Shown here: in pieces, positions 1-64,000 of the stretch
How positions within the stretch are numbered: position 1 is the first letter of the stretch
Layout: each line of letters begins with the position of its first letter
Source of the DNA: Malacoraja senta
Lineage: Eukaryota
Assembly (NCBI GenBank): GCA_038087875.1
Contig: CM075991.1
Span: 10,666,001 to 10,730,000, forward strand
DNA length: 64,000 nt
Reading direction: 5' to 3'
Notes under the pieces: model-generated
Seen by the model: only the letters and a program-made list of their open reading frames with translations
What the model was told of the DNA's origin: nothing
The model's database searches: none
Translations under genes and position numbers: made by a program

Positions 1-1310
1 CGGCAACCACCAAACCACACAAGCAAGCCTTTAAGGCACAATATCTTTAAAATGGCCATCTCGTTTCCATTAAAGCATGCGTCTTGCCACCAGTTATTTA
101 AGCAATTCTTATTGGCAAGCAGTCGCCATCACAAACAGTGGACTGGAAATCGAGAAGGTAATTCAGAGTATGTCATTCGAGACAAACATCACAAGTTATA
201 ATTTTCCCGTAAAAGTAATATGTATAAACCAAAACCATGGCATTCTTATAATGTTTCAAATAAATTGATCAAAATTCAGACACACTATGATCTAAAAATT
301 GTTACTGCAACACACAAGTACACTTCCTATGATATAAAATTCTAAATAACGTATGGAGCAATCCGTCATTCCATACCATCAAAAGCTTAATGTTGTTATT
401 TTCAACAAATGCAAACACCATAACAAAGGAAAATGGGTAACAGGCAAAGGTCATTGTAAAGTAGTCAAGATTTGTAAACGTCAGGAAGCAAACACAGCAG
501 AAAATAATGAAGGAAGATAATTGAAACCTACAGTTTTCCTTCCTGGTGGAGGCAGAGGGAAAATGAAGGAGAGAGGTAAATTATTTTGAAGTCTATTCAT
601 TCAACATGAAACACAAATGGGTAGTTGCAGCTGGCAAACATACTATTGCTGGGGATGGGATTCGGGGGTGGGTGAGGGTGGGGAAAGACTCTTGCAAACA
701 TATGACCAAAAATACAGACAACAACCAAGGAATCCACATGGAGTAATCAAACACGATGCTTCACGAGTAGAGCTCCCATCTTCCCCAAAAATTGAGAAAA
801 ATTGAGATTACAACCCACGTTCTGGGTTGTGGGTATAACAATCGATCAGAACAGATCGAACATCACAGAATCGGTTTATTGCCAAATGAAGGTCGTGGTT
901 AAAATAAACCATAATACTCCAGCACTTGGTGTTTAAAAAAAATAAAATAAACAATACTTGTTCCATGAAAGAAATTGGGATCAATGATAAAGATAACTCG
1001 AGGTTTCAAAAAAAAATTTTTTTTTAAAATAGGGAAGTCTGTCCAATTGTGGGATTTTCTTTTTGCTGATAAAACTGTATTTTCAATCAACAAACGTACC
1101 AATCCAACAGAAGATTAGTGCGGCAGCTTGTCGTGTGGCGCTCTAGGAGAAGAAGGTGCAGCAGCCTCAGTAAAGACAGCAACGACAAAAAATAAAACAA
1201 GAGGTGAGGTGGAGAGAAGGAGCAGGCCCAGAGTCAGCACAGTTCAGCAGTGAAACAGGAAGAATGGAGGAGACACACTCACCCACACACATACATACAT
1301 ACATACTTAC

Positions 1311-2854: not shown

Positions 2855-2990
2855 TTTGTTTAAGAAGGAACTGCAGATGCTGGAAAATCACAGGTACACA
2901 AAAATACTGGAGGAACTCAGCGGGTGCAGCAGCATCTATGGAGCGAAGGAAATAGGCAACGTTTCAGGCCGAAAACCTCCTTCAGACTGA
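2855..2990 (-). mobile_element. Penelope-derived short element with degenerate hammerhead motif
   Basis: Matches the ttaagaaggaactgcagatgctgg...ccttcagactga family found throughout the window. Confidence 0.7.
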
Positions 2991-3564
2991 CACTTTCTTC
3001 TGTGCAGCCTAACACTTTCTTCTGTCCAGCCCTATAGTTTATTTATTGTCTCGTGTACCCGAGGTACAACAAAATGGGGGGATTGTAATAGGTGGACCCA
3101 AAAATGCTGGAGTAACTCAGCGGGACAGACAGCATCTCCGGGGAGAAGGAATGGGTGACGTTTCAAGTCGAGACCCTTCTTCAGACTGATGTCAGGGGAG
3201 TGGGTGTTTTATTACAACAGAACCATTCACAGTGTACAGGTCAAAGATAATCCCAGGATCTCCACACACACGCACACACACATGACATCCACTCTTTCCA
3301 ATGATGTCAGATATATTTGTGGGTCTTCTGTACAAAGCTTCACCCTTGAAAGGAACAAGTTTATATTACTTCTGCATCTGAAGTTTGGACTAACGAGTAG
3401 CACGAAAACTTATAAGATCACAAGACGTAGGAACAGTATTGGACTATCGAGTACTTCTCAGTACCTGCTTGATGAAGGATTTTTTTATCATCTTATTTCG
3501 AAACTGTCCACCACTTCCAGACACAATGAAAATCTGTGATAGTTTTCCACGTTTCAATTAGTTT

Positions 3565-10700: not shown

Positions 10701-13700
10701 TTTTAATTTGAAATTGTGTTTATTTTGTTTTTTGAATCTTTGCTTTATTTAATCAGCATTATACTGCCTATTGCCTCATTAGTCAATTCTGATATCATTA
10801 CTCAACATTTGATATTGCTGTAGTATGTGTATAAGAGTAGGAATGTTTCAACTTTTAATATTGTTCCCCTTGTGGGGTATTTGTCCTTGGGTTGAAGGGT
10901 TGGAAATCGTGCCAAATGGGATAACATTGCCGGTGGACTACCAGGGGAGAAGCACGGGGGAAGCCTTCGTGCAGTTTGCCTCAAAGGAGATAGCTGAAAA
11001 AGCACTGGGGAAACACAAGGAAAGAATAGGGCACAGGTGGGGCTGGACGGAAGGGTGGCTCATATGTCTTTAAGCCCACATGTTCAGGTTGCAGAATTAA
11101 TTCATTCTTGAAGAGAAAATAGTCGAACCACCCACATGCCTTTGGAAAACAGTGGGGACTCAACTGATTTTTCTAAATTGTGTAAAAGATGTCCTATACT
11201 GTAGAGCCCTCAGTTTAGAGTTGAAAGTTAATGACAAATGTAATCTGTTGGGCATTTGGAAATCTGCACTTGCATAATTTAAATTTCAATAATAAATTTG
11301 CAGAATTTTGATCGTCCAGGGGGGCTCCACAGTTTAGGATTATCTGATGAGAATGCGGAAATTGCAATTGTTTAAATTTGATTCAATTTTTAAATACTTT
11401 GCTACATTTGGATAAACTAAATTATATATGCAAAATTAAGTTACATTTATGTAACAAACCAATATTACATTGTCAAGCCTTTGTTGTAAACAATTTTCTC
11501 AGCTTAGTGCGTGCAGCGCACAGCACTGCAGGCTTCAGTCGTCATCTAACCTAATGGGAAGGTGATGACTAGTCAGCTTGCTAATTTGTATTTAATTCAA
11601 ACATTTCAGATTTGATTGATTCAGTATTTGGATTTGCACTTGGAAGCGTCGGTATAGTCAAATTAATGAAATATGTAGCATTTGCTTATGTTGTGTTTCA
11701 CAAACTTGTTCTGCTTTTTTAAAAGCAAAATGTCTGACTTGGTCTTGCACAATTTGGAATCTTGTCACATTTGTGTTGAAAGTCCAGGTTTGTGTTGGCC
11801 TCAAGCATTATGTCCCATATGTTTAGATCATACGTAATAGGAGCAGAATTATGCCATTCGGCCCATCAAGACTACTGCGCCATTCATTCATGGCTGATCT
11901 ATCTCTCCCTCCTAACCTCATTCTCCTGCCTTCTCCCCAAAACCTCTTACACCCGTACTAATCAAGAATCTTATCTAAGGTAGACACAAAATGCTGGAGT
12001 AACTCAGCAGGACAGGCAGCATCTCTGGAGAGATGGAATGGGTGACGCTTTGGTGACGAGACTGTTCTTCAGACAGACCATTCCTTCTCCGGTAATGCTG
12101 CCTGTCCCGCTGAGTTACTCCATCATTTTGTGTCTACCTTCGATTTAAAGCAGCATCTGCAGTTCTTCCCTACACATAAGAATCTTATCTATGTCTGCCG
12201 TGAAAAATATCCACTGACTTGGCCTCCACAGCCTTCTGTGGCAAAGAATTCCACGGATTCACGACCATCTGTGATTGTGATGAAATAAATTTCTCTTTGT
12301 CTCTTTCCTAAAAGAACGTCCTTTAATTCTGAGTCTATGACCTAGATTCTCCCACTAGTGGAAACATCCTCTCCACATCCACTTTATCAAAGGATTTCAC
12401 TATTCTGTACGTTTCAATGGGGTTCCCCCTCATTCTTCTAAATTCCAGTTAGTACAGGCCCAGTGCTGTCAAGTGCTCATCGTATGTTAACCAACTCATT
12501 CCTGGGATCATTCTTGTAAACCTACTCTGGACCCTCTCCAGGGCTAGCACATTCTTCCTCAATTTTGCCCAAAATTGCTCAACATTCCAAATGCAGCCAG
12601 ACCAGCGTCTTTTCGAGCCTCAGCATTACATCCCTGTGTTTATACACAAGCCCGCTCACAATAAATGCTAGCATTCTGTTTGCTTTCTCTACCACCAATT
12701 CAACTTGCAGATTAATTTTTTGGGAATCCCGCACAAGCACTCCCAAGTCCCTTTGCATTTCCGGGAGCTTGTTCTGGATTCTCTTATTTGAGGAGGGTGG
12801 GGGTGGCAGCAATGGAAGGACAATATTTCATGGGGATATAGTACAAATTATGGGATGTGCTGCCGCTGGGCTTTTATGTCCTTAAGGATATAATTGCCTT
12901 GTAGGTGAAACGGTGGTGAATCGGTGCATATTGCATGTTCATTTCCTTCCTTGGATGAAGAGAAAAATTTAGTAAACTGGGCCTCTATGCTGTGTTTCAG
13001 AAGAATGAGGGACAATCTTATTTATGTTTGGTCCCCTCACAGAATGTTTGTCCACAAGGTTAATTCCCTGGGTGGAAGAATTATAAGGTTTGGTGGAGGT
13101 GTCTTGGAAAGGAAAGGTCATTAATGTCAGACATTTCTTTTTGGGGATTCTGAATCTTGGAAAGTGTTGCCCCAGTGACTTGTGGATGCTGAGTGCTACT
13201 GGACCACAGTATTGTTGGGGTTGGGCAGGAAAGTAGAGTTGAGGCCGATCATTGGAACAATCATAATCCTGAAGATAGACATAATATGCTGGAGTAACTC
13301 AGCGGAACAGGCAGCATCTCTGGAAAGAAGGAATGGGTGATTCGGGTCGAGACCCTTGTGAGTGTGTGTGGTATGACCTGCTCTGGCTTGTTCTTATTTC
13401 ATCTTGAGTGCTTTTCCAATTTGGCCGTGAAAGTGCACACATGCCTCTTCAAATGATCCTATAATTTTTCTGTTTAGCTGTTCAATCCCTCCATTCCAAT
13501 GTGTTCTAACAAGTCAGACATTTATTCTAATTTATAGATATATTGTTAACAGATATTGTGGATATCTTCATGGATATAGTTTATTTAAATGTTAATGATG
13601 CCAAGTCCAAGTAGATTGATTGCTCTGGTGAAAAGTTAACTGAGTTTTTCAATTTAGTTAATTAACACTTGTTACTATGATTCCCAGTGGCCTTGCCAGA

Positions 13701-16700
13701 GAAGATCTGATTTTATGGTTGACGTTGTACTTATTTCAGTCAGGTAAAATATGAGAGCATTTGGAAAAAGCTGTTTCATGTTTCACTCAACTAATGCAAA
13801 CTACCACTAGTTTTCTGCCACGTAACTAGATATTAAAGTATGTAAATACCACTGAGGTGTCATTGACTGGGAGTCAAGTGTGCTCCATCTTTAATAGCCA
13901 TGTTGTTAGCATTGATATTCCAGTCAGATTCTGTAACAGTGACAGAGGCTGTCCACTGTTCCTTGAACATGGATAAGGAGTTAACTATTTAGTACTGATG
14001 TGGCCCTGGTGACATTGTCTTGTAGTGTACTCGGCTGATGTGGGTAAAAACAAAAAGGGGGGTCTTCTGATTCTTTTCACCAGAGGAATCTACAATTGTG
14101 TGATTAACATTTTAAACAGATTTTTAATATGGTCATGACCATAAAGTAAATGTATTAATTGTGGCTGTTCAGGTATATTGAAATCTTCAGAAGCAGTCGA
14201 GGAGAGATTCGAACTTATCAGGATCCTCCGCGAAGGTTAATGGGACAACGTCCAGGACCATATGACAGACCAATGGGTGGAAGAAGTGGGTATGGTGGTC
14301 CAGGCCCTATGCGAGGGGACATGTATGACCGTTCACGCCGAAACTCTGCTTATGGCGGTGGTAAGATTGAGGAGTTTTTTTCAAGTCTGCAACTTCAAAC
14401 GACTGTTTAACTGAAATGCTGTGTGTTAATAGGCATGATTTTTTACTCTGCCTATTTTCCCCCATGCTTATCCATCTTGGATTTGTACCAAATGGATAGA
14501 TAATCATGATAGGGTCGACTTGGTCGTATCCATAAGTTATAAGGTCATAAGTGATAGGAGTAGAATTATGCCTTTCGGCCCATCCAGTCTACTCCGCCAT
14601 TCAATCATGGCTGATCTATCTCTCACTCTCCACCCGATTCTCTTGCCTTCTCCCCATAACCCCTGACACCCGTACTCAGCACCCTCATTACCCGTTACAC
14701 ATCTTTGGGGTGTGGGGGGAAACCCTCGCGGTCACAGGAAGAACGTGCAAACTCCACATAGACAGTGTCGGAGTACAATAGATCCTTGTCTGGAACAGCA
14801 AGCGGAGAGTCGCCACTTTGCAGTGCCATCTAGCAACTTCCATAGAAACATCCAGGCAATACCGTTCATTGATACTTTAAACAAGGGAGGGCACAACTTG
14901 TGTTTCGTACAGACTCTCAAGTTTATTTCTCCTCCAGGCTACGGCAACTATGAGGATTACGGTTATAATGATGGTTATGGGTATGGACGTGATGGATATG
15001 GACACAATATGAGAGCAGTTGGAATGATGGATAGAGGTATGAATCTCGTGTTGGCTTAAGTTTTTATTGTTCTGTGTGTTGTGGATAAGATATAGTTATA
15101 TAGAGCGGGAGCAGATCTTTCAACCCACTTGAGGACAATGCTGGAGTAATGCAGCAGGTCAGGCAGCATCTCTGGAGAATATGGATAGGTGATGATTTGG
15201 GTTGAGACCCTGAGTTATTCCAGCACTGTGTCCTTTTGTGTATTAACCAGCATCTGCCGTTGTTTGTTTCTATATTTCAACCCAGTGTCCACAATGACGA
15301 GGTATTGATTTATATAAATTCTACAGCGGTCTCCATATTTGATCACTCCAGTGTACCTGCTGGTACATCCTTGGGATACGGTCACTGGGAGAACATAAGA
15401 ACTCTGCATAGCACTGGAGGTTAAGATTGAAAATGGATTGATGTTAGTGTGAAGCCACAGCTCTATGAGCTCCCCATACTGCATTTCTCACCTGCCGCAC
15501 AGTGAAGCTTGTTTTTGTTTTTTAACTGGGGGGGGGGGGGGGTAAAGAAAAATTCTGCCATTGAATAAGATACTCAATGACACCAAGTGTGTTTTAAATA
15601 ATTTGATCTTGGAGTTGCATGTTCAATGTAGTTGGGGGATTGGATGTGCAGCATTGGGGAAGTACTTCTCTCTGAGGGAGACCTGCTCGGATATAACAAG
15701 ATAATTAGTTTGATTTGTTTTTTTAAATGTTTCATCGTTTTGTTCTAGACTTGGTGGCTTTCCAGCCTTGGTTTGGTTTCTGGTGTTTTGAATGCTGTCT
15801 TCTTTGTTGTTTGCAGGGATGAGTAACCGTGGTTATGGTGGAGCAGGAGATGCCAGTCCACTTTTCCAAAATGGTACAGGTCATTATGTACACATGAGAG
15901 GACTACCCTTTAGAGCTTCGGAAGGTGATGTTGCCGATGTAAGTGGAATATGGGGTATTGTATTTAACCTAAAATGGGAAATGTTTTGGGAAAATCCTGA
16001 TGGCATTTTCCATTACATTTGAGATATGATTGTTAATAACTTAAGATAGAGGAGAGCACTAAAACACTTGCTGGAGTGGGATTTCACCATAAAACATCTC
16101 GAGCTAAATATTGGATGAAGCTCCTGTGATATCAAGGGCCCACAGTAGAAAACTTCACTGGCATTGACACTGATTTATTAACTGCTTAGCTTTGCAGTTG
16201 AGACTGTATATTGCTGCATTTCACGCTGGGATAAGAATATTTACCTGGTTTTGCTTTGTACGGATATAAATAAGGTGCATATTTCTAGTGTCAGTTCTGA
16301 GTTGGCACATGTGGTAAAAATGGGTGGAAAAAAATATTCTTGCTATTTATTACTGCTCAACTTTTTTTCTCTGCAGTTTTTTTCACCGCTCATTCCCGTT
16401 AAGATCAACTTTGAATATGGCTCTGATGGGCGTCTGACTGGAGAAGCTGATGTTGAGTTTGCCACTCATGAAGATGCTGTTGCTGCCATGTCTAAAGACA
16501 GAGCACATATGCGTGAGTGATTAAAATCATAAGTTGCTGGAGCAGGATTAGACCATTCGGCCCATCAAGTGTGCTGCACTGTTCAATCATGGCTGATCTG
16601 TTTCCCTCGCAACCCCATTCTCCTACCTTCTCCCCAGAATACCCTTGCTAATCAAGATTTGTGCAGTTTTATAAATGTTAACGCTATTATATTATAAGTG

Positions 16701-17242
16701 TACTGCTCAAAGCTGATGTGTCAATTTGAGCGTACAACCTTGAAGCAGAGGTCATTAGTTAGTCTCTTACCTTTATAGTTCAAGGTTTATTAATGAAAGC
16801 TAGCTGACAGCTGCATTCCTCATTTGGGTTATTATGGTGTCATGTGTAGTTATGAATTTAACTTGTCTTTATTTTGCCCTGCTCCAACTTTTCTAATTCC
16901 AATACCAATTCTCCGTCTACACCGCATCTGCACCCAGGGTGAGGTTTTCCATACTAGGTCATCGGAGATGTGCTAATTGTTTTGGGAACTGGGAATTTCC
17001 CCCCCCCCCTTCCATTATAGATGAGGTTCTCACTAGGGTCTCCTCGATATCCCGCAGCTCTGCTCTTGCTCCCCCTCGCCATCTCCAACGGGATCCCACT
17101 ACTGACCACATCTTCCCATCTCCACAGCTTTCCGCAGGGACGATTCCCTCCGCAACTCCCTGGTCAACTCGTCCCTTCCCATCCAAACCATCCCCTGCCC
17201 GGTACTTTCCCCAGCAACCGTAGGAGATGCAACTCCTGTCTC

Positions 17243-17276
<34 letters not shown>

Positions 17277-20200
17277 TGTCAGTTAGGCCCAATTTCCTCC
17301 CCCACCCCCGTATATCGGCGAGACCAAGTGCAGGCTCTGCGATCGTTTCGCTGAACACCCCTGCTCAGTCTGCCTTAACCTACCTGAACTTCTGGTTGCT
17401 CAGCACTTTGGTTGCTCCCCCTCCCATTCCCAATCTGACCTTTCTGTCCTAGGCCGCCCCCATTGTCAGTTAGGCCCAGCTCAAATTGGATGAATAGCAC
17501 CTCATATTTCGCGTGGGTAACTTACACCCCAGCAGTATGAACATTGACTTCTCTAACTTTGAATTGCCCTTGCTTTCCCTCTCTCTCCATCCCCTCCCCC
17601 TTTCCAGTTCTCCCACTAGTCTTACGGTCTCTGACGACATTCTTACTCTGTACCCCCCCCCTACTCTCCTGACATGTCTGAAGAAGGGTCTCGACCCGAA
17701 ACATCACCCATTCCCTCTCTCCAGAGATGCTGACTGTCCCGCTGAGTTACTCCAGCATTTTGTGTCTACCACCAACTTTCCAAATTCTGTTGTATCTTCA
17801 ATTGTCATTATTCAAGAGTGGGCTAATTAATTTTGACCACATTGCTTATTCTGAGACTGCTGCTTTGCAATTACAAAGTATTAATTTTTGTCTTTTTAGA
17901 ACATCGGTATATTGAGCTCTTCTTGGATTCTACTGTCAATATGGCAAGTGCTTATGGAGCTCATCGAATGAGTGCTATGGGCCTTGATCATTACGCTACA
18001 GGTAATTGTCAATTCTTGTTCGAACTTGACGATTGGTAATTGGTGCTTGAGAATGTAATGAGTGTAAGGATGAACGAATGTTCAGTTTGTTTAGCCATTT
18101 TTTCCCCACATCTCAGCTTTCTGGAAACTGGCAGCTGACAATTCTGTTTACTGATAGTAAACTGGTAATGCTTATTGCACCTTCAAGCTGTAAAGCATGG
18201 GAACATAAAACATTTAAAACAAATACGCGTTGGAATTAGGCACAAACTTAACATGTCCTCGTTCTAAATCCACTTTACACGACAGAGCTAAAGTGGAGAT
18301 AATTGAAATGATCTTTAATTGAAATAGTTATGCCCTCAAGCTTCCTTGGTTTCTGTGTTCAAATTAATTCCCATTTTTCCAATTAATGTGGGTAGGTGTT
18401 ATTCTGACTAGAGGTCTGGCCTGCAGGCACTAGTGATGGAAATATATTACTTGGATGTAAATGTAGATAGGTCGGTTAGTAAGTTTGCAGGTGAGGCAAA
18501 TTGGTGGAGATGCAGGCTGTCAAAGTACGCAGGACATGGATTAGCTACAGAAATGGATGGAGAGGTGACAGAATCCGAGCTAGTGTGTTTTTTGATGATT
18601 TAGTAGTTTGATTTAAAGGGAAAAGTATTCAGTTAATGGCAAGACTCTTCTAGGGTTCCAAGTCTGCAGCTCCTTTAAAATGGCAACACCTCGTGGTAAA
18701 GAGAGCATCTGCTTGCCTTCATTGGGTGGGGCATTGGATAGAAGCCAGGAAGAAATGTTGCAGCTTTGTTGGATTTTGGCTAGATCCCATTTGGCGTATT
18801 GTGTGCAGTGCCCCATTAAGGGAAGGCGTGGAGGCTTTGGAGAGGATGCAGAAAGGGTTTACCAGAATGCTCCCTGTATTAGAGGATTATTGGATATAAG
18901 GAGAGGTTGGACATCTGAGATGTTGGAGTTTAGGGGAGTCGTCATTGATTGTATAAAATTGATAGGCTTGGGTAGGGTTCTCAGTCAGAACCTTTTTCCT
19001 TGGATGGAAATTTCAAAGATTAACGTGTCTACCTTTACGGTGAGGGGCACTGTTTAAAGGAGTTGTGCAGGGCAAGTTTTATTAAATGACAGGTGTCTGG
19101 AATGTGCTGATGATGGAGGGAAATACGGAAGTGGCATTTAAGATACTTTTAGATAGGCGCATGTATATGCAGGGAATGGAAGGATATGGGTCACATGCAG
19201 GCGGAGGAGATTAGTTTAACTTTGGACAACGTTCCGCAAGAACAATGTGGCCAGAAGGGATTGCTCCTGTTTTATCTGAGCAATTGAAGTTATTCTAGAG
19301 TTGTTTGCTTTAAGAATACATACATCTAGTAAGACTCCAATAATTCGGCATCCTTGCTGCTAGGCTGGTTGGCAGATTTACCAGTCTGTTGGATATTACT
19401 CCAAATGCCCTATACCTTGCAGATTTTACCCTAGTAAAATAATCCAGTGAGTTTAAAGGGACTACAGGAAACTGCTCTCGTGCGCTAGTTGGATAGCAGG
19501 TTATCAATTTAACTTTGTGCCTGTCTTATTGTCCTGTTGATGTTGACATTTCATGGCTGTGGTGGCATTAAGAGAAGTTCTTAATTCATGTTAAATTGCA
19601 AGGCTGAACTATGTTGCACTGAAAGGGCAAGTGGCTGAATTGCAAATAACTGTAGTGCAGAAAGCAAATTCCTATCATTGTCCATTTTCTTTTAACCCAC
19701 AAAGGGAAGATAACTTTACTAAACACATTGCGGCTCTTAAGTGGCATGCAAGTTGTCAAGTATGTGGCATGTTTTTTAGAGCAGTTGAATGGGTAGTGCT
19801 CTTTATTAAAGAGAGGGTGAAATTAATGAAACATCTGTTTCAATTATTTTTGACAGGTAATCAAGGAGGCTATGGGCATAATGGTCAGGGTGTGGGAAAT
19901 AGCTATGGCAACATAGGAAATAGTTATGCAGGCTATGGAAATTCTGGAACCACACGTGGATACGGTAAGTGAAGATCTTCTCTTGAGGACAGCTTTGGGG
20001 AGTTGTTGGGTTACTAGAGGTTATCGTAATATTCTTGTTGAAATGGGCGAGGGTGGGTTGGTGAACCAATTGATTGCAGATCATTTCATGAACAGTAAAG
20101 AGAGACAAAATGCTGAGTAACTCTGGGATTGGCCACATTTCTGGAGAGAAGGAATGAGTGACAATTCGGGGTTTTTGGGTGGATTTTGACCGGATCGTCA

Positions 20201-23297: not shown

Positions 23298-23480
23298 GTA
23301 GACAAAAATACAGCAGGTGAGGTAGCATCTATGGAGCAAAGGAAATATGGAGCGAAGGTCGAAACCCTTCTTCAGACCAGAAACGTTGCCTACTTCCTTC
23401 GCTCCATAAATGCTCCCTCACCTGCTGAGTTTCTCCAGCATTTTTGTCTACCTTTGATTTTCCAGTTCCTTCTTAAACAT
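23298..23480 (+). mobile_element. fold-back Penelope-derived short element
   Basis: Inverted partial copy followed by a forward copy ending ttcttaaaca; short flanking repeat tccaccag. Confidence 0.65.
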
Positions 23481-24768
23481 GCAGCATCCACCAGTCGTTT
23501 TTACTGTTAAAAATAAAGTGTTTTTATTCCCCCCCTTCCCTTTGCCCTCTTCACCTCTCCCTCCCGCCCTCATACTTTCCTTCCTTATCATTTTGCACAT
23601 TCCTGCCTTTCCTCCTTCCAGTTCAGATCCAATTTAGAACTACAAACTAATCTCACAGAGGTAGAAATAATGGGCACTTGTCAAAAAGGTGTGATAAACA
23701 ATGGGGATTTAAATCCATTTTTGGCAAAGTAGACTTGATCTGGAGTTACGGGACAGTTACTTAGAATAGCACATTCTGGAGCCAAGGATAAAGTAGGTTC
23801 CACTGAGCCTGGAACAAGATAAGATTAATTTAGAAGCACGTCGTGAAAGTAGAAGTGATAGTGATGTAATTAACTTTCATATTCGGTTTGAGTGAGGGAA
23901 GAATGGTCCACAGCGAAGAAATCTCTGAAGACATGAAAGCAGAGTCAGGTAAATTAAGGCAAGGGGTGTATTGACCCAGTTCCCGCATTATAATCGCGGT
24001 GGAAGATATTTCTTCTTGCGTTGAGGCAGCAGAGGTTATGTAACGCCCTCCAGGCGCTGTAGCCAGTTCAATGTGCTGTTGGCGAGGGCCGTCTGGTCCA
24101 CCCCTCCACCAGGGGGGCGGAGGACAGTGCAGTCGAAAATGACGTTCGCTGTGCTGTTTGTTGGTCTGCTCCACACCAGCAGGCTGCTGGTGAACGCAGC
24201 CCCCCAGCCATGTTTACAGGGATCTCTCAGAATCTATCAAGAAAGGAAGGTTCCAAAGGGGAAGGACCCACCAACCAAGGTTAACTGGAGGTTATAGTTT
24301 CAAACTTTAAGAAAATACTATAATGTAGCTAACTACAATTATAATTATCAGGTCAGAAAGTTGGTCTAAATATTGGAGACAAAAAGGCAAGGAATGACTG
24401 AAAGACAGGACAAATTAGAGTACAAGAAAGAGCTAGCCTGAAATATGGAGGATAGGAAGACTTTAAAAGTTGAATACAGTGAGTGTGTGTTCTGTAGATA
24501 GCAAGTCTGGAGAATCAGTAACGCAGGAAATTGCAGCCTAATTAAACAAGTACTTTGTGCTAGCTCGAAGGCCGAATGGCCTCCTCCTGCACCTATTTTC
24601 TATGTTTCATTATAGTGTGGGTACAAACACAATCTCAGAAATGGTTTGTGAATTGGAATGGTAGAAGAATGCAGGAAATGATCAAATGTGTTGGTGCTGT
24701 GGGCTGACGTGTCCGGTTGCTGATAGATTTTATCTTGCAGTCTTTAAAGAAAAGGTTAGTGAGATGGT

Positions 24769-24891
24769 AGACAAAAATGCTGGAGAAACTCAGCGGGTGC
24801 AGCAGCATCTAAGATGCTGCTGCACCCGCTGAGTTTCTCCAGCATTTTTGTCTACCTTCGATTTTCCAGCATCTGCAGTTCCTTCTTAAAC
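24769..24891 (+). mobile_element. fold-back Penelope-derived short element with 16-bp TSD
   Basis: TSD aggttagtgagatggt at 24753-24768 and 24892-24907; perfect 45-bp hairpin at 24766-24856. Confidence 0.85.
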
Positions 24892-25889
24892 AGGTTAGTG
24901 AGATGGTTGATTAGTTGGTTTTCCTAAATTTGGAGTATTGGGTTGGAAAATAATAAATATAAATCCTTTATTAAAATGTGAGGCAGACGACAAGCCAGTT
25001 GGCCATATTTGTCACAATTTTATTAGAAGCTATTATTAAAAACCATATAGTTGAGCACATAACAAAGCAATGTCATTAAGCAAATAAAGTTTTGCAGAAA
25101 GGGATATCACGTTTAATCAATTCATCGGATTTCATTGAAGGGAGTGCTCTGGATAAACGGGAGCCAGTGAATCAGATTCCTAGATGGCATTTATTCGATA
25201 GGTGCGGCATTGAAGTTTGTTGCCGAAAATAAAAGATAATAAATTGGTGTGGAATGAAGATTAGACTGCTAGCAGGAAACAGTCGGCAAGATATGACGTT
25301 TGGTGCTCAGTGATCTGTGCTAGGGGCCCAGTTTAAAAAAAAAAAAAATTAATTACATGAATGACTTGGTCGAAGATATCAAGCTATGCTTGCTAAATCC
25401 ACTGGCAAATTTGTTTTTTTTTTTACAAAAGTAAGTTGTCAAGAGGACATCAGAAAAGCAATCTAAACAGGTGAAGTGGGAAAGGATTTGGCAAATGGAA
25501 TACAAGGTGTTACATTCTCCATTTGGCTGAAAAATAATTTAAAAACATTTATTTCGAAAGAAATATAAAAGTAGAGAGGTTATGCTTAAGTTTTCAGGAC
25601 ATAAGGTAACTTTTTTTTACTGTAACTTAGTACATGTAACAATAAACTAAACTCATCTTGGACCACTGTGGGCTCCACCTTTCCTGGGTCGTCGGTGCTG
25701 GTTCTGATTTATTCTCTACCTTTTTATACCTCCAGTTTTCCCTCTCCACTGACTCTCAGCTTGAAGGAGGGCCTCGACCTGAAACGTCACCCATTCCTTC
25801 TCTCCAGAGATGCTGCCTGAGTTTCTCCAGCATTTTTGTCTACCTTCGATTTTCCAGCATCTGCAGTTCCTTCTTAAACATAGCATGAC

Positions 25890-26525
25890 AATAGAAAATA
25901 GGTGCAGGAGTAGGCCATTCGAGCCAGCACCGACCGCCATTCAATGTGATACATAGATACATAGAAAATAGGTGCAGGAGTAGGCCATTCGGCCCTTCGA
26001 GCCTGCACCGCCATTCAATATGATCATGGCTGATCATCCAACTCAGTATCCCGTACCTGCCTTCTCTCCATACCCCCTGATCCCTTTAGCCACAAGGGCC
26101 ACATCTAACTCCCTCTTAAATATAGCCAATGAACTGGCGTCAACTACCCTCTGTGGCAGAGAGTTCCAGAGATTCACCACTCTCTGTGTGAAAAAGTTTT
26201 TCCTCATCTCGGTCTTAAAGGATTTTCCCCCTTATCCTTAAGCTGTGACCCCTTGTCCTGGACTTCCCCAACATCGGGAACAATCTTCCTGCATCCAGCC
26301 TGTCCAACCCCATAAGAATTTTGTACGTTTCTATAAGATCCCCTCTCAATCTCCTAAATTCTAGCGAGTATAAGCCATGGCTGATCATCCCCAATCAGTA
26401 CCCCGTTGCTGCCTTCTCCCCATATCCTTGACTCTGCTATTTTTAAGAGCCCTATCTAGCTCTCTCTTGAAAGCATCCAGAGAACCTGCCTCCACTGCCC
26501 TCTGAGGCAGAGAATTCCACAGCAT
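25890..26525 (-). mobile_element. clustered CR1-type LINE 3' fragments
   Basis: Repeated CR1 tails (ctactcctgcacctattttctat) and ORF2 C-terminus (LWNSLPQRAVEA). Confidence 0.75.
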
Positions 26526-26651
26526 AAAGCTCTGTACCATACTACCATACCATAGCATAAAGTACAATAGCATAAATCACCTGAAGTGCCATAGCACAAA
26601 GTGCCATAGCATACATAATGCGCTATAGAGCAGAACACTATAATATAATAG

Positions 26652-26691
26652 ATGGGTCTGAAGAAGGGTTTCGGCCCGAAACGTTACCTAT
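26652..26691 (+). ncRNA. minimal type-I hammerhead ribozyme motif, Penelope-associated
   Basis: Stem I AUGGGU/ACCUAU; core CUGAAGA plus an extra A; stem II GGGU-UUCG-GCCC; GAAA; loopless palindromic stem III ACGU; predicted cleavage after GUU at 26685. Activity is untested. Confidence 0.6.
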
Positions 26692-26770
26692 TTCCTTCGC
26701 TCCATAGATGCTGCTGCACCCGCTGAGTTTCTCCAGCATTTTTGTGTACCTACTATAATATAGTATCAGT

Positions 26771-26798
26771 CTGAAGAAGGGTCTCGACCCGAAACGTC
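26771..26798 (+). ncRNA. second tandem minimal hammerhead motif
   Basis: CUGAAGA-A-GGGU(CUCG)ACCC-GAAAC-GUC, 113 nt after the first core; stem I is weak. Confidence 0.5.
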
Positions 26799-26959
26799 TC
26801 CTATTTCCTTCGCTCCATAGATGCTGCCTCACCCGCTGAGTTTCTCCAGCATTTTTGTCTACCTTCGATTTTCCAGCATCTGCAGTTCCTTCTTAAACAG
26901 AGTATAAAAAGCACCATAGCATAAACCACTCGTGTTTCAAGCACCAGACCCATCAACCC

Positions 26960-27116
26960 GGCCTCTGACGTCTGCCCGCAGCGCGGAAACTACGTTGGAT
27001 ACAGCTGATTGATGGCAGTGCAGCCAATAGTCCGCAGCGAGGGGCGGTTACCGGGTTGCGTCGGCGGCTGTAAAAGGCAGGTACCCGCGGCCTCCCTTCC
27101 AGCGGCGTTCATCATT

Positions 27117-27147
<31 letters not shown>
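26960..27147 (+). promoter_or_regulatory. MTHFD2 promoter and 5' UTR (CpG-rich)
   Basis: CRE-like TGACGTCT about 26966, CCAAT 27024-27028, GC box about 27041, CpG-rich sequence up to the ATG. Confidence 0.6.
27120..27146 (+). repeat. (CAG)9 microsatellite immediately before the MTHFD2 ATG
   Basis: Nine perfect CAG units, then c-ATG at 27148. Confidence 0.95.
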
Positions 27148-27148
<1 letters not shown>

Positions 27149-27242
27149 TGGTCCCGGCGTGCGGCAGCACCACCTCCTCCACCCTCCGCCTCTTCAGCGC
27201 CGCCCTGCTCAGGGCCTGTCGCCTGCACACCAGCGCGCCCAG
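27148..27242 (+). CDS. MTHFD2: MTHFD2 exon 1, mitochondrial targeting peptide ([31 protein letters not shown])
   Basis: Arg/Ser/Ala-rich with no acidic residues; donor CAG|gtagga; phase 2 fits exon 2. Confidence 0.85.
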
Positions 27243-30200
27243 GTAGGACATAGACCCGGGGATGGGTCGTGGCAGAGGGCGGCGAAAATCCTCCCGGCCC
27301 GGCTCCAATTCACTCACCCCAGCTCATTACACACCGCCAAACCCTTCACCCACCCCTCCTCTCCCCAATCTACTCCCCTTCCTGCTCCCCCACCATTCTT
27401 GTCTTCTCTCGCACCCCATTGATTTAGTTTCCCTCTCCCCCCTTTTTTTCTCCCCCTCTCTCTTCTCCCTCTTTCTATCTCTTTTTCTCCCCCCCTTTCT
27501 TTTTCTCCACTTCCCCTTTCTCCTCTTCTATCTCTCCTCCCCTTTCTCTTTTATTTTCTCCCTCCTTTCCTCTCTACCCCCTTTCTCCCCCCATTTTTTC
27601 TCCTGTTCCCTTCTCTCTCTCTCTCTCTCTCTTTTTTTCACCCTCTTTCTTTTTTTCCCTCTTCCCCTTTCTCTCTTTTTTTTAAATCTTCCTTCTTTCC
27701 CCCTTTTCTCCCCCCTCCTTCCACTCCCCTCCCTCTCCTTCCCTTCTCTCTCTCTCTCTACCCCTTCCCCTCCCCTGTCCACTCCTCCGGGATGCGAGCC
27801 CACAGCCCCGGCAAGACGGCTGATGAAATATCGAGAGTTGGTTACGTGGTTCATTGTGTGAAGCCGCCGTGCAGGCTCATCGGGCGTGGAAATTGAAAGC
27901 TCCCGATCGCATCTAATGCGTGGAGGAGCGGGGCAGGGCTCAACGAGGAGCCGAAATGGAAAAAATAGTTGCAATAACTCTGTCATTTCTATTTGACCTT
28001 GTTTCTCTCTGCTCTCAGCCCATTCCAATCAGCCGCGTTAGAAACGCAGTCTCCAAGACTGGCTGCTCTCTTTTCTGTACTGGTGTGTGTGTGTTTAGTC
28101 TTTCTTAAAAGCGTGTCATTTTTGTTGGCGTTTCTGATGTAATCTCGTGTCGAGGTTGCACTGGAATTTCCCCCAGTGACGCCGACCTTCCACTAACTAA
28201 AATTACACTTGAAATGACACCGGGCGTCTGGAACCGCTCGCCATTCACCACTACCGGTTCTGCCTGCGAGACTTGTCATCGCAGTCACCGTTTCCTCGCT
28301 CGATTGGCGAGTTGCTGGCAAAATAATGCGACGTCTGTTAAATGCTGGCAGTACACTTCAATAAGTTATATCCATGCCTCGATATATGAAAGGTTAGTCG
28401 GTGCTATCGATTGCATATCAATTGACGGGCTTTTCATCAAACCTCTCCTTGCTCTCTCTCTATCAGTAAACAAGGGCCCCGCCAATTTTGCAGTTAATTT
28501 GCTCATCTCCAATTGACGTCCTTTAAAGATGCTTCAAAAAATAGCAGCTGCCAATACCAAACCAGGAACCTGGGCTATTACCTTGCCTTTGCCTACAGGA
28601 GTTGTCTGCCAAGAGATGCTAGTCCAACTTATAACATCATATCTTGTAGTTTTATATTTGTTTAAAACGCAGGAAGCCAGTTAGCCCATCTAGTCTATGC
28701 CAGTTCTCGGATCAATTCCATTCACTGACATATTCAAGAGATGTATTCAAGAGAGAGTTAGATTTGGCTCTTGGGGCAAATGGAATGAAGGGTTATGGGG
28801 TGAAACAGGAACAGGGTACTGATTCTGGATGGTACACAAAAATGCTGGAGAAACTCAGCGGGTGCAGCAGCATCTATGGAGCGAAGGAAATAGGTAACGT
28901 TTCGGGCCGAAACCCTTCTTAAGACTGATAGGGGGTGGGGAGAAGAAAGGAAAAAAGGAGAAAGGCGGAGGAGGAGCCCAAGGGCTGGGGGAGGGGAGGA
29001 GACAACCAGAGGGCTGATGAAGGGGAGGGGACAGCAAGGGCTAGCAGAATTGGGAGAATTCAATGTTCAAGCCCCCAGGATGTAGACTGCCCAAGCGGAA
29101 TATGAGGTGCATTTCCTCCAATTTACGGTGTTGCTCGCTGTGGCCATGGAGGAGACCCAGGACAGAGAGGTCAGATACGGAATGGGAGGGGGAGTTGAAG
29201 TACTGAGCCACCGGGTACGGAATGGGAAGGGGAGTGGGCCACAGGGTCTCCTCCATGGCCACAGCGAGCAACACCATAAATTGGAGGAAATGCACCTCAT
29301 ATTCCGCTTGGGCAGTCTACATCCTGGGGGCTTGAACATTGAATTCTCCCAATTCTGCTAGCCCTTGCTGTCCCCTCCCCTTCATCAGCCATCTGGTTGT
29401 CTCCTCCCCTCCCACAGCCCTCGGCCTTTCTCCTTTTTTCCTTTCTTCTCCCCACCCCCTATCAGTCTGAAGAAGGGTTTTGGCCCGAAACGTTACCTAT
29501 TTCCTTCGCTCCATAGATGCTGCTGCACCCGCTGAGTTTCTCCAGCATTTTTGTGTACCTTCGATTTTCCAGCATCTGCAGTTCCTTCTTTAACACAATA
29601 CTGATTCTGGATGATTGGCCATGATCCTGGCACAAAGGATGTATGGCCTCCTGCACCTATTTTCTATATTTCTATTTTTCTATTCACCTGCCCTTTCATT
29701 AACTGCTTTTACTGCACCCCCCTCTACGCTGCAGAAACCAACCTCCCTTCCACTGACTTCATCTGCACTTCACGCTGCCTCGGCAGGGCCAACAACATAA
29801 TCGAGATCCAGTCACAGCCCTCTTCTCCCCTCTCCCATCGGGCAAGAGGTGCAGAAGTGTGAAAACGCACACCTCCAGATTCAGGGATAGTTTCTTCCCA
29901 GCTGTTATCAGGCAACTGAACCATCCTGTCAACAACTAGAGAGCGGTCTTGAGCTGCCATCTACCTCATTGGAGACCCTCAGACTATCCTTAATCAGACT
30001 TTATCGTGCACTAAATGTTATTCCCTTTATCATGTATCTGTACACTGTGGACGACTTGATTGTAATCATTTGTAGTCTTTTCACTGACTGGTTACCACAC
30101 TACAAAAAGCTTTTCACTGTACATGAGACAATAAGGTAGACTAAATAATTAGGGTGATCTAGATTACATGGCTAGTCTACCAAACCTCATGCCTTTGTGG

Positions 30201-33200
30201 CGTTGGAGGCAACTGGAGCACTTTGAGATGGCGGGGGAGGGTGGAGAAACCCACCTGGTCACAAGGGGAACATGCAAACTCCACACAGACAGCATTGTGG
30301 ATCAGGATTGAACCTGGGTCACTGGAGCTGTGAGAAAGCTGCACTTTCTTCATTCCCATCCATTGCCGTCTGAATAGTGACACCCCATGGAAAAGATGTG
30401 GTGCGGTCGGAATGTAGAAATGAGGAACTGCAGATGCTGGTTAATACACAATAGGACACGGAGTGCTGGAGTAACTCAGCAGGTCAGGCAGCATTCCTGG
30501 TAAAAATAGGTGACATTTTGGGTTAGGTCTGATGTCTGAAGAAGGCTCCTGACCTAAAATGTCATCTATCCATGTACTCCAGAATGGCTTACTCCTTATT
30601 CTTAAACTGTGGCCCCTGGTTCTGGACTCCCCCAAACATCGGGAACATGTTTCCTGCCTCTAGCGTGTCCAAACCCTTAACAATCTTATATGTTTCCAAT
30701 TTGCTTCTGCCGTACAAATTGAGTCAAAATAATAATTTGGTCTGTGCAGATTTCTTTCTCCTATTAATAATACCCCAGTCTCATCCTCGAAAGGGACCTG
30801 TCTCAGTTTGTCTGCCCCTGTGGGCGCGGACTCGCGGGGCCAAAGGGCCTGGTTCCGCGCTGTATCTCTTAAAGTCCAAAGGACAGCATCCCCTTTCCTA
30901 AAGAGATGCTGCCTGACCCGCTGAGTTACCACAGCACTTTGTGTCTATCTTTGGTGTAAAGTTTTATTGAATGTCTATTTCTTTTAGGCCATTCAGCCAC
31001 AGGTGTTTCTTTCCCTTCCCACTTGTAGTGCTAAACTTGTAAACGTAAGAACAGCGCGGAAGATACAGGACCTTCAGCCCACTGAGTCCGCGCCGACCAG
31101 CGATCACCCCGTACACTAGCACTATCCTACAGACTATGAACAATTTACAAATTAACCTACAAACCTGTACGTTTTTGGAGAGTGGGAGGAAACTGTAGCA
31201 CCCGGAGAAAACCCACAGGGCCATGAACGTACAAACTCCGTACAGACAGCACCTGTAGTCAGGATCGAACCTGGGTCACTGGTGCTGCAAGGTAGAACTC
31301 TACCTCTGTGCCACCTTTAATATCTCCTCGTACATTACTGCCAATGTCTCTCCGATTCTGCCAAGTCACGAGTTTGCAGAAATTTACAGTACAGACAATT
31401 ATTCCGTGCTACTGAGAATAGGGCTGTTTGGCCAATTCTACATCTCATCAATCCATCTGTAATCCATTCAGTCATGAGATGTGGATGTCACTGCCAATGC
31501 AGGGCATTCAGACCATCCCCAATTGTCCTGAAACTGTGGAGGCTAAGGATCGATCACGTCAGGGTTGGGTACAGGCCAGAATGATCACGGACGTCTGAAT
31601 ATCTTAAAGATCATTTGTAAAACATCGCGACACAAGAAACTGCAGATGCTCGAATCTTGAGCAAAGTGCCACGTGCTGGAGGAGCTCAGAGGGTCTGGCA
31701 ACATTTGGTGAGGGAATGGACAGGCGACTTTCCACGTTGGGGTCTGCAGAAGGGTCCTGATCTGAAAAAGCATCTGTCCATTCCCTCCCCAGATGCTGCC
31801 TGACCTGTTGGGTTGCGATTTGTAAGACACCATCTGGTTCACTAATACAGTAATTTAATGTGAGTTTTTAAGTGAATTCCACATTTATTTAATTACTTAA
31901 ATTTAATCTTCCCCAGATGCTGTGGTGGGATTTGAACACGGGTTTCTGATAGTAGTCCAGAGCTCTAGTTTCGAGTCCATTAGTACAACCAGCAGCTCCA
32001 GTTTGGAAACAAGTCAGATTCGAGAGTCAAGAGTGTTATCATATGTCCCAGATAGAACATGACATTCTTACTCGTAGCAGACATTCTTACTCGTAGCAGC
32101 ACAACAGGATCTGTAAACATAGTACACTGTAAACAATATAATAAACGAGAAAAAATGTATATATATATATATATATAAATATATGCACATGTACCCACAT
32201 ATTCACACGCATGCACGCACGTACACACGCGCACGTTCACACACACACACTTACGCACGTACACACACGCACACACACACACACGTACACGTACACAGAA
32301 AAACGTACAATACAATAGTTTAAGAAGGAACTGCAGATGCTGGAAAATCGAAGGTAGACAAAAAGGCTGGAGAAACCCAGCGGGTGAGGATAGATCTATA
32401 GATGCTGCCTCACCCGCTGAGTTTCTCCAGCCTTTTTGTCTACGTACAATACAATAGATTTTATCCATGTACAAAAGGGTGCAATGAATTTCCATGACGT
32501 TTGCATGAAGCTGCAGCATAAACAATATTCATGATACTGATAGATACAGAAAATGCAACTGGGAATAGAAAACAGCAGAATAATGCAAAGATTGTAATGC
32601 AATCTGAAGTAGAGGGGAAGAAAGATTGAAGTGCAATAATGAAAGAACAGGACGAATTTGATTGAAGAGTAATGGGCCTGTCCCACTTAGGCAGTTATTT
32701 TGGGCGACGACAGGCGACTGCCTCAATAATTTTGAACATGTTGAAAGATTTTCCCCGACAGTGGCGATAATTTTTACTGTCGTAGGTTGTCGTAGCTGAA
32801 TTCCATTAAGGGCCTGTCCCACTTGCCCATTTTTTTTCAGCGACTGCCGGCGTCATATCAGGGCCGCCAAAAGATTTTGGGCATTTCAAAATCCATCCGC
32901 GACAAAAAAAATGATACGGCACTTGAAAAAACATCATACGTCATCACGCCGCTAATTTTTCGGTGACCTGATACTTCGGTCAATGATGCCGGCAGTCGCA
33001 GAAAATATCGCCAAGCGCGACAGTCCCTTTAAAACCTGGCAGTTGCCTAAAGAGTCGCTTAAGTGGGACAGGCCCATAAGAGTCCAGCTATTTTTTTAAA
33101 CTGCAGTCAGAGTTTCTCCTTCCTCTTTCAGCCAGTTCCAGACCCATGCTGTTCCATGGGAGTGGAGGAAAATCTTTATCCATCGAATCCATATGCCTGC

Positions 33201-36200
33201 GCATCTTAAATCAATTTTTTTGTTTAGAGATACAGCACGGAAACAGGCCCTTCGGCCCACCGGGTCCGTGCCAACCAGTGATCCCCGAATATTAACACTA
33301 TTCTACACACACCAGGGACAATTTTTACATTTACCAAACCAATTAACCTACAAACCTGTACGTCTTTGGAGTGTGGGAGGAAACCAAAGATTCCGGAGTA
33401 AACCCACGCAGGTCACGGGGAGAATGTACAAACTCCATACAGACAGCATCCGTAGTCGGGATCGAACCTGGGTCGCCGCATTCGCTGTAAGGCAGCAACT
33501 CTACCGCTGCGCCACCCTACCGCCAATTATTGAGGGGAAATAGATTGTCTATCTAAGCCTTGTTTAAGTTCCCTTCGACCTGTTTGTTTGTTTATCGCCA
33601 GTCTCTCCTTATCGCTCACATTTTCGAGCCCTGGCGGCATCCCTGGAAATTTCCCCTGCACCCCAGTACTCATCTCCTTGATCGGAACTGACGCACGCCA
33701 TCCTCGATGTGAGCTGGTTTGTGGAAGATGCTGTTCCAGAAGGACTCGCGGCTCGACATTTTAAGCACCTTGCCTGACCTGCTTACGCCACTGATCTGTG
33801 TGGATGTGCGCATCCAGATCCATCTATCCCCGTCCACCTTAATCCTTCCTAAATGCATAACCTGTCATTCTTCAAGATGACTTTCATTTGTCATTCTTTG
33901 TTTGTATTTCTATTGTTATCTTTTAGGTCTCATTTTTTCCCCCCCTTTGCAATCAGTCCCACTGATTAGTTTTAATATAATCTGCTAACTGCTTAATCCA
34001 TGGGGTGATGCCTTGATGCAAACTATTGAGCATCAGACAGTCTGCCTGGGTTTGCATAAGTGTTCTGTTCCATTCCTGAGAACTAGCCATCAGCTGATTT
34101 ACCTAAGCTGCAAACATATGTTTAATAACCTGTTATTGTATCTTTCTCTGCATACACCTGCGGCAATTCTGCCACCTCATTACACAATAACCCGATTTGT
34201 CATCGTTGAACACATTAGCGACCCAGTGGTGCTGGCTTCCAACAGGAAGAACCTGATCAATTAAACTGATGGAATAGTCAGACTGCAGATGGTGGTTTAA
34301 ACCAAAGATAGACACAAAAAGGGTCTCGACCCGGTAGAACTAGTGTACGCGGTGATTGTTGGTTGGCGCGGACTCGGTGGGCCGAAGGGCCTGCCTTGAC
34401 GCTGTAACTCCAAATTTTAAACTTTAAGCACCTTTGGCCTCTTTTTGGTTCCAGAAATGATGCGGTGGTCATCTCGGGGAGAAGGCTCGCCAGGCAGATC
34501 CGAGGGGAAGCCAAGCTCGACGTGGAGAACTGGGTGGCTGATGGGAACAGGAGGCCACATCTCAGCGTTATCTTGGTGGGCGAGAACCCAGCCAGCCACT
34601 CCTACGTGAAGAACAAAACCAAAGCTGCTGCCGACGTGGGTATGTATCTCGCCTTCTACTTTACGGAGAACGCTGCTGTGGCCTGGAGCACTTGTTCCCC
34701 CCCCCCCCACAGAAAGTTAGTTGATGGAGATGCTGCGAAACAGGCCCTTCGGCACAACTTGCCCACACCGGCCAACATGTCCCAGCTACACCAGTCCCAA
34801 TTGCCAGCTTTTGATCCATTTCCCAAATATTTCGCTTTGGGCATCTTGCAACCCAGCGGTATGAAAATCGACTTCTCTTACTTCAAGTAACCCTTACTTT
34901 CCTTCTCTGCTAACTGCAGTTCATTGTCTCTGTACTTGTACACTGCACATTGACAATAAAGTTTGAATCTGAATCTCTCCATCCCTCCCCCATTCTAGTT
35001 CTCCGATTAGTTTGACTGTCCCCTGATTAAAATGTTATCTTTGTTACACCTCATGGTCACCTTACCTCGGCTAACAATGATCTATTCTACATTTTCCTTG
35101 AACTTTGTCCCCTTATCTCTGTGTCTTCCTCGCCCCTGATTCCTCCATTTCTTCCGTCACCCATTCCTTCTCTCCGGAGATGCTGCCTGTCCTGCTGAGT
35201 TACTCCAGCATTTTGTGTCTTCTTAGATGTTGCTTTATTGGAAGCTGGCGTTTGGGTGACTTGGCTGCTTTCTTACTTGGTTCCACCATGTCCCTGGCTG
35301 TGAAGGGTCTTGGTATCAAGTTCTGTTAATATCATTGCATTGTTCCAACTGTGAATACCGTGCTTCAAAGTCCACGTCTAAAATCGTTGGGCGGCAAAGT
35401 GGCGCAGCGGTAGAGTTGCTGCCTTGTAGCGCCAAAGACCCAGGTTCGATCCTGACTTGGGGTGCTGTCTGCACGGAGTTTGCACGTTCTTTGTGACTGC
35501 GTGGGTTTTCTCTGGGTGCACCGGTTTCCTCCTGCACTCCAAAGACGCACAGGTTTGTAGGTCAATTGGCTTCTGTAAAAAAAAATTTTTTTTTAATTTA
35601 AATAAAATAAAATAAATTATCCACAGTATGTAGGATGTAGTATGTACAGGGTGATCGCTGGTCGGCGAGGACTCGGGACAAAAGGCCTGTTTCTACGCTG
35701 TATCTCTAAAGTAAAGCATTAGCTCATGCCTTTGGAAACAAAATGCGATCTCGAAATTGGAGGTTTTTAAAGCACAAAATGTTGGATGAACTCAGCAGGT
35801 CTGGCAGCATCTATGGAGGGAATGGACAGGTAACATAACCTTTCCGCTTGGTACCCTTAAGCCCCTGTCCCACTTAGGAGACCTAAACAGCAACCTCTGG
35901 TGACCTTGCCCGCCACCCAAGGTTTCCATGAGGTCACCGGAGGTTTTGGGTCACTCTCCCTAATGGTTGAAAGTGGTTTCCGCGTGGTCGAGGCTTCATC
36001 TAGGTTGCTGCTATTTTTTCATCGTGATTAAAACCGGCCTCGACTAAAAATAGGTTGCCGTTTTAAAAATCGATCATTTTTTAGTCGCAGGTCTAGTCGA
36101 AGCCGGATTTCTTCATAGTCGAGGAAGGTTTTCAACATATGCGTGGGAGGTGGGAGGAGGTTGCAGGTCACCTCGACCTTGATTTTTTTTTGGGTGGCGG

Positions 36201-63900: not shown

Positions 63901-64000
63901 ATAGACACCTCCTCATCCCTACCCCCTTCACCATGATCGCACAGACGAACACCAGACCATCATCTGTTTCTGATCTTATTGTCTCTGGCCATCTCTCACC

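Follow-up and report, generated by a model that had tools for sequence, protein, structure and literature searches.

The tandem hammerhead units upstream of MTHFD2 are most probably two 5'-truncated Penelope-like element (PLE) pseudo-LTRs (pLTRs), each with a minimal hammerhead, that were inserted successively and are likely inert now. The locus is of an ordinary known kind, a PLE pseudo-LTR relic bearing a known minimal hammerhead motif. Within the window, the whole 64-kb stretch of DNA that was analysed, Tandem Repeats Finder reports the pair with period 113, 1.8 copies and 92% matches. The landmarks given by the original prediction are present: sequence and pattern scans place the cores at 26658 and 26771 as CUGAAGA-A-(4-bp stem II, 4-nt loop)-GAAAC-GUH; the repeat said to precede each unit is ACTATAATATA, at 26637-26647 and 26752-26762; the predicted cuts fall after 26685 (GUU) and 26798 (GUC), 113 nt apart; the ACGU palindrome proposed as stem III is found in both units; and the distance to the MTHFD2 start, put at about 250 bp, is 248 bp (26900 to the ATG at 27148). 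The unique segment between units 1 and 2 is ACTATAATATAG. Coordinates of the features are collected in Table 1.

Table 1 Features of the hammerhead pair, of related PLE copies and of the host gene in the window.
Feature	Position	Strand	Remark
Left copy of the 11-bp direct repeat ACTATAATATA	26637..26647	+	Probable target-site duplication of unit 1
5' junction filler ATAGATGG	26648..26655	+	Gives the non-native 5' arm of unit 1's 8-bp helix I
Unit 1: PLE pseudo-LTR, 5'-truncated, without tail	26656..26751	+	
Core 1: minimal type I hammerhead, C3 to U17	26658..26685	+	Predicted cut after 26685
Right copy of ACTATAATATA, between units 1 and 2	26752..26762	+	
Unit 2: PLE pseudo-LTR, 5'-truncated	26764..26864	+	Different subfamily from unit 1
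Core 2: minimal hammerhead	26771..26798	+	Predicted cut after 26798; published helix I requirement not satisfied
Optional 35-bp PLE tail of unit 2	26865..26899	+	Basis: bimodal 3' ends
MTHFD2 coding exon 1	27148..27243	+	tblastn with skate and sawfish-like MTHFD2
Longest PLE remnant: broken RT C-terminus/linker and GIY-YIG endonuclease, then pLTR (core 17678)	16911..17770	+	
Head-to-head endonuclease-end and pLTR copies in MTHFD2 intron 1	28829..29597	.	15-bp TSD; closest relatives of unit 1
Head-to-head pairs	11978-12177, 23298-23480, 24765-24892, 28829-29597, 32318-32444, 51362-51538, 52571-52921, 55535-55676		

Comparison of the pair with its sibling copies identifies the repeat, on sequence grounds, as the 3' pseudo-LTR of a PLE with a C-terminal endonuclease, because the repeat follows, on the same strand, remnants that resemble the whale-shark protein P0003. 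A profile built from ten copies, and seeded with core-bearing ones, recovers 55 fragments that amount to 3961 bp, or 6.2% of the window; the reversed window yields none. A broken reading frame with YIGET...RFAEH lies 5' of the core at 17678, and two of 22 candidate homologues matched at E<=0.001, one a skate protein and the other P0003. The latter carries RT motifs, a CX4CXXC linker and a GIY-YIG domain, and Pfam returns RVT_1 and GIY-YIG for it. Its alignments to the window (16911-17563, 29214-29023, 29245-29379, 52629-52727, 37889-37800 and 34831-34887; E 1e-17 to 0.006) mark six remnants in five insertions, and each time the repeat lies directly 3' on the same strand. The pair at 26656-26899 is itself truncated and holds no endonuclease remnant. 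Pfam gave no match for the short endonuclease remnants, whose identification rests on the homologues, and scans of the sequence collections found no further relatives of P0003. The clade is probably Neptune-type, as judged from sequence; the CX2-5CxxC linker is present in P0003, has lost its first Cys in the window remnant and is a motif common to Nematis. The Penelope-type character that had been proposed for the minimal hammerheads is thus borne out by the sibling copies, in which the pLTR follows GIY-YIG ends. The longest remnant (16911-17770) lies in the sense direction inside an intron of the upstream RNA-binding gene.

The cores were scored with the published descriptor, CUGANGA(N), a stem II of 3-7 bp, GAAANNUH and a helix I of at least 3 bp (PMC4209133 Fig. 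S7). Nine cores in the window fit the core and stem II pattern, against a mean of 0.1 (maximum 2) in 30 shuffles. Adding the helix I condition leaves two of the nine, 26658 and 47422, and both satisfy it only via non-native 5' junction sequence. CUGANGA(N), stem II and GAAANNUH occur in unit 1 and in unit 2, and the palindromic 15.1-16.1 that permits a dimer is ACGU in both. Unit 1 alone has a helix I of at least 3 bp (8 bp, built on the junction filler); in unit 2 helix I is 0 bp, its first pair being U-U, and the full descriptor fails. The native helix I of the PLE family is 2 bp, short of the canonical type I motif, which has a helix I of ~6 bp and contacts between loop 1 and loop 2. The 6-bp stem I described earlier for unit 1 holds in so far as six Watson-Crick pairs form, but the full helix is 8 bp with two G-U pairs, its 5' arm is junction filler, and it is a within-unit helix that goes unused in a dimer. 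Besides pairing with helix I's 3' arm, the filler at 26648-26655 repeats in its first 7 nt a piece of the pLTR interior; upstream of the copy at 57074 a comparable stretch of re-copied internal sequence lies at 57082-57103.

The variation of stem II, which had been read as keeping its pairing among copies, is a one-sided change from U-A to U-G and is not compensatory. In 17 copies, none of six stem pairs is altered on both sides; 88% of stem cells pair, above the slid controls, and the power of this covariation test is low because the copies are close kin. All of the other cores listed originally are there, with two corrections: the core at 17678 has lost the palindrome (ACAU) and the one at 48852 has a stem II of 3 bp. 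The earlier list lacked the cores at 3184 and 50171 on the minus strand. Rfam returned no match at gathering thresholds, and the core pattern had no matches in the metagenome and viral contig collections. Residues follow the standard hammerhead numbering; that NUH triplets are not cut equally well, and that CpG sites decay, is treated as background. A second same-strand pair of cores lies at 2857-3204 on the minus strand (3184 and 2985, 199 bp apart); its members are of different subfamilies, with none of five diagnostic sites in common, and the core at 2985 is damaged, with an 11-bp repeat of its own on either side.

The two units differ in the way that copies of different subfamilies differ. 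They are identical at 86 of 93 positions, and six of the seven differences are subfamily markers found in other copies. Units 1 and 2 agree at none of the six subfamily sites, compared with 27 of 28 between the arms of inverted pairs. On the strength of these sites, simple tandem duplication of a single unit was rejected. At position 1.1 unit 2 has a private change from A to T that is seen in 0/38 other copies. Unit 1 is identical at 92 of 93 positions (98.9%) to the copies at 29462 and 28928, and the best matches of unit 2 reach 93.5-94.6%; this identity gap suggests that the units have different ages. The 11-bp repeat starts exactly at the end of unit 1 and recurs 8 bp before the 5' end of that unit. 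An anchored repeat of at least 11 nt was met at 7 of 20000 random positions, a count that includes self-hits, and at none of 121 local positions, and the size of the repeat fits the repeats that surround inverted pairs of the PLE family. The tail is present on unit 2 and absent from unit 1. Because the units agree at no subfamily site and a TSD-like repeat encloses unit 1, two insertions are likely, and not a rolling-circle dimer.

The course of events would then be as follows. The PLE endonuclease would have nicked AT-rich DNA. The reverse transcriptase would have begun at either of two start sites inside the PLE RNA, one that includes the tail and one that omits it, and would have ended at most a few bases upstream of the hammerhead core. 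Unit 2 would be the earlier insertion, and unit 1 would have landed later, 12 bp upstream, duplicating the repeat in the process. For unit 2 itself no clear TSD was found, the best candidate being 5 bp.

This order was set against sequencing runs in a search for the empty site, in which contigs of four of the 23 listed runs were aligned to 26440-27300 at 88%: three DNA-like runs (X1, X2 and X4) and one RNA-like run from another organism (X15). Among the joints listed for the contigs of these runs, there was no empty site and no joint that skips unit 1 or the whole pair, which counts against the two-step order and leaves it, like the target-site duplication, no more than probable. Between 130,000 and 180,000 contigs mapped per DNA-like run, mostly via the repeat, and in X1 the summed depth of the repeat exceeds that of the unique flank by five to six orders, a figure that does not count copies. 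Contigs of X1 cross the left junction unchanged (26498-26679). Those of X15 span MTHFD2 coding exon 1 and do not reach the unique sequence on either side of the pair; since a missing contig proves no absence, X15 says nothing on the empty site. Head-to-tail joints that lead from 26899 back to 26769 occur in 28-48 contigs per DNA-like run, elsewhere in related genomes, and these count against successive insertion as the best explanation. Contig depth is also high at 26440-26522. The segments 25885-26522 and 63424-63912 are other high-copy repeats, the first of them directly left of the AT-rich target region; presumably they are of CR1-type LINE origin, given their resemblance to the 3' parts of such elements.

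The other copies in the window show how members of this family insert. When 3' ends are counted from C3 in 19 matches at >=85% identity, eight fall at +90..96, ten at +124..134 (one of them the query) and one at +55; this bimodality defines the 35-bp optional tail. In all eight head-to-head pairs examined, one arm is tailed and the other untailed, with the 3' ends facing outward. The arms belong to the same subfamily, and all eight pairs sit inside direct repeats of 7-19 bp. These flanking repeats score 7-17, six of them at least 10, compared with 0/400 random pairs. Such a pattern is expected if a dimeric PLE protein primes both target strands and there are two RT start sites. Seven copies (2985, 26658, 26771, 40796, 47422, 50171 and 57074) are 5'-truncated no more than ~6 bases upstream of C3, at points that differ from the predicted cleavage site (+29); RT drop-off at a C-rich tract or AT microhomology may account for them. 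Re-copied local sequence is often found at the 5' junctions of the family, as in the 2985 and 57074 copies.

These habits also make room for a one-event origin. An untailed unit beside a tailed one is the pattern of single inverted insertions too, and therefore a one-step template jump fits as well: the reverse transcriptase would have passed from pLTR RNA to the 11-bp target overhang and on to a second pLTR RNA, leaving a direct partial tandem that is still a PLE relic and not a retrozyme. The junctions with re-copied local sequence agree with such a jump, and partial tandems are typical of PLEs (PMC8557442). We nevertheless regard a single complex insertion as unlikely, since arms made in one event share their diagnostic sites while units 1 and 2 share none, and since the greater similarity of unit 1 to its nearest copies suggests different ages. 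By either route, two insertions or a template jump, the pair is not the product of rolling-circle copying of one monomer.

Upstream of the core, the native sequence is a pyrimidine tract ending TATCAGT. In less truncated copies (29430-29466 and 28925-28960) a long pyrimidine tract ends in CAG one base before the core, and the tract with its CAG resembles a splice acceptor. Splicing could, on this analysis of the motif, rebuild a short helix I in the master element. The idea that unit 1 is a copy of spliced PLE RNA was set aside: no matching donor was found by eye in the remnants, and the CAG is retained in several truncated copies.

With successive insertion as the preferred reading, what can the pair do as RNA? 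The original prediction of a retrozyme-like dimer that releases a 113-nt monomer does not hold up: the units come from different subfamilies, the 11-bp repeat lies around unit 1 alone, helix I is defective in both dimer cores and the predicted fold is strongly disfavoured. We modelled a double hammerhead in which the 5' arm of each core pairs with the 3' arm of the other unit. Dimer core A (cut after 26798) begins with a U-U at 1.1-2.1 followed by seven pairs; dimer core B (cut after 26685, triplet GUU) has a helix I of 2 bp; and the 8-bp helix within unit 1 competes with the dimer. By nearest-neighbour energies, which hold no tertiary contacts, protein help or known active dimer control, the dimer fold lies 23 kcal/mol (19 for a trimmed RNA) above the free ensemble, and forcing a single core costs 8.5-13 kcal/mol. 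The free fold has no extra stability against shuffles (MFE z=-0.54). The pair is predicted from these models to cut RNA poorly or not at all, and it would rarely form the double-hammerhead fold, without efficient release of a 113-nt circle.

A working or newly born non-LTR retrozyme dimer, transcribed and processed through the double hammerhead into 113-nt linear or circular RNA, is accordingly very unlikely to us. It can draw on two intact catalytic cores with ACGU palindromes set 113 nt apart, on the seven pairs behind the first mismatch of core A, and on the proposal of a preprint that retrozymes derive from pLTRs and are present in a chondrichthyan (bioRxiv 10.64898/2026.07.22.740005). Both cuts are required, though, and the mismatch in core A, the 2-bp helix I of core B, the GUU triplet at the first site and the unfavourable fold all speak against them, as does the origin of the units from two subfamilies. 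One repeated monomer with a complete hammerhead per unit is not what the locus presents (1.8 copies, two subfamilies, an incomplete unit 2). One of nine predicted dimers in Xenopus was cleaved (Li et al., bioRxiv 10.64898/2026.07.22.740005), classical retrozymes have canonical type I motifs in 150-450-bp repeats (PMC7229834), and a 113-bp monomer falls below that range and inside the 51-972 bp of the preprint. A version of this reading would see a retrozyme at birth. We give the whole of this scenario very little chance: a young pLTR would have come to lie 12 bp upstream of an older one, with filler supplying a helix I of 7-8 bp that the family normally lacks, and the hetero-dimer, if transcribed towards MTHFD2, would self-cleave with help from PLE protein or chaperones, cut transcripts from upstream and perhaps set free a 113-nt circle. 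Cleavage by the pair, should it occur, would reveal a route by which retrozymes arise from two pLTR insertions.

Whether the core is more conserved than its flanks, a point on which the prediction had staked itself, received a split answer, for the core is spared from subfamily-level change only. Among 18 core-spanning copies (a small sample, from a profile seeded with core-bearing copies), differences from the majority at non-CpG positions amount to 12/180 (6.7%) in the core and 143/1045 (13.7%) in the flanks (p=0.007). Taken overall, this higher conservation favours selection on the motif, as far as sequence comparison goes. When columns with a common second allele are set aside, the counts become 9/162 for the core and 51/781 for the flanks, and private change without the three oldest copies is 8/150 (5.3%) against 39/753 (5.2%; p=1.0). 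G12, which is CpG-linked, is missing from 4 of 18 copies, or 3 of 15 without the three oldest. Because core and flank rates are equal once shared-allele columns are set aside, selection is likely at work in the master elements rather than on copies once they are inserted. Active masters would keep the core, which, probably aided by protein, would cleave their tandem precursor RNA in dimer form; inserted copies such as this pair would decay neutrally.

Nor did the suggestion that sense copies in introns cut pre-mRNA find support, as 12 of the 20 fragments within MTHFD2 are in sense, with no bias. Over MTHFD2 and the upstream gene together the count is 14 of 25 (p=0.69, a small sample), the limits of the upstream gene being set by exons that look hnRNP H/F-like. 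Three intact cores lie in sense among the genic fragments, and in the absence of a strand bias there is therefore no sign of purging. The upstream exons (about 5400-19970, plus strand) resemble those of an RNA-binding gene of the hnRNP H/F kind. Pfam gave no match for four ORFs of this gene and one LINE-like ORF.

Exon 2 of MTHFD2 is 100% identical to the skate (Leucoraja) mitochondrial MTHFD2 protein cluster, and exon 1 is 82% identical to the N-terminus of the skate (Leucoraja) cluster, which makes a relative of skates the likely host. A (CAG)9.7 repeat at 27120-27148 stands immediately 5' of the ATG. The GC-rich, CCAAT-containing proximal region begins about 100 bp past the pair, a nearness that, with the short distance to the ATG, invites the thought that the MTHFD2 promoter recruited the pair as a cis element, either as a pLTR promoter or enhancer or to cut RNA that reads through. 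With 55 fragments in 64 kb, however, any promoter should have a copy no more than a few hundred bases away; unit 1 is young and unit 2 has a private damaging change, and we hold co-option to be extremely unlikely.

The pair itself is of little consequence, one among many dead pLTR ends. With the window, the hosts of Penelope minimal hammerheads come to include a skate-like genome, in which their density is very high, and the eight head-to-head pairs offer a natural test of the model of two start sites and priming on both strands for PLE insertion. It also carries a warning, that calling any two adjacent hammerhead units an active retrozyme counts chance neighbours of different subfamilies. Our literature search on elasmobranch PLE hammerheads and twin priming returned nothing relevant. 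Within these searches and the text and figures of the papers cited here, the PLE family was not found in print; the preprint (bioRxiv 10.64898/2026.07.22.740005) reports retrozymes in one chondrichthyan.

Set beside animal non-LTR retrozymes (Cervera and De la Pena 2020, PMC7229834; bioRxiv 10.64898/2026.07.22.740005), the pair is similar in its head-to-tail units with a hammerhead core each, its lack of coding capacity and its pLTR-related sequence. It differs in that its units are of different subfamilies with host target sequence between them, that the ribozyme is minimal and not canonical, that unit 2 has no helix I and that the pair is known from DNA sequence alone.

The likeness to minimal hammerheads of metazoan PLE pLTRs is closer. 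Such motifs were described in 2014 (Cervera and De la Pena, PMC4209133), and according to that paper they cleave weakly even as dimers, and the intron of D. virilis Penelope ends at helix I. Shared with them are CUGANGA with one extra nucleotide, the G10.1-C11.1 pair, the loopless palindromic stem III (ACGU), a U-rich upstream tract, a site just past the endonuclease stop codon, and copies that are mostly solitary and truncated. The native helix I of 2 bp is below their 3-bp descriptor and resembles the D. virilis variant, and stem II is 4 bp here in contrast to 6-8 there. Table S1 and Fig. S3 of the same paper list no cartilaginous fish.

The manner of insertion is that of PLEs. These elements are reported to show 5' truncation, partial tandems, inverted copies, a 30-40-bp tail at one end and 8-10-bp TSDs (PMC8557442, PMC3846280); the tail is explained by two RT start sites, with AT-rich targets and extension on both strands, and the pLTR hammerhead is said to cleave only with the element's protein (PMC11167929). 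C-terminal EN+ PLEs of the Neptune/Nematis type (Craig et al. 2021, PMC8557442; Arkhipova et al. 2013, PMC3846280) share with the present family the order RT-linker-GIY-YIG, the CX2-5CxxC linker (in the closest long homologue), 5' truncation, an optional 30-40-bp tail, head-to-head inverted copies and TSDs. Unlike them, the pair keeps only the last ~100-135 bp and stands in direct orientation with a duplicated target between its units, and the TSD-like repeats are somewhat longer, mostly 10-16 bp.
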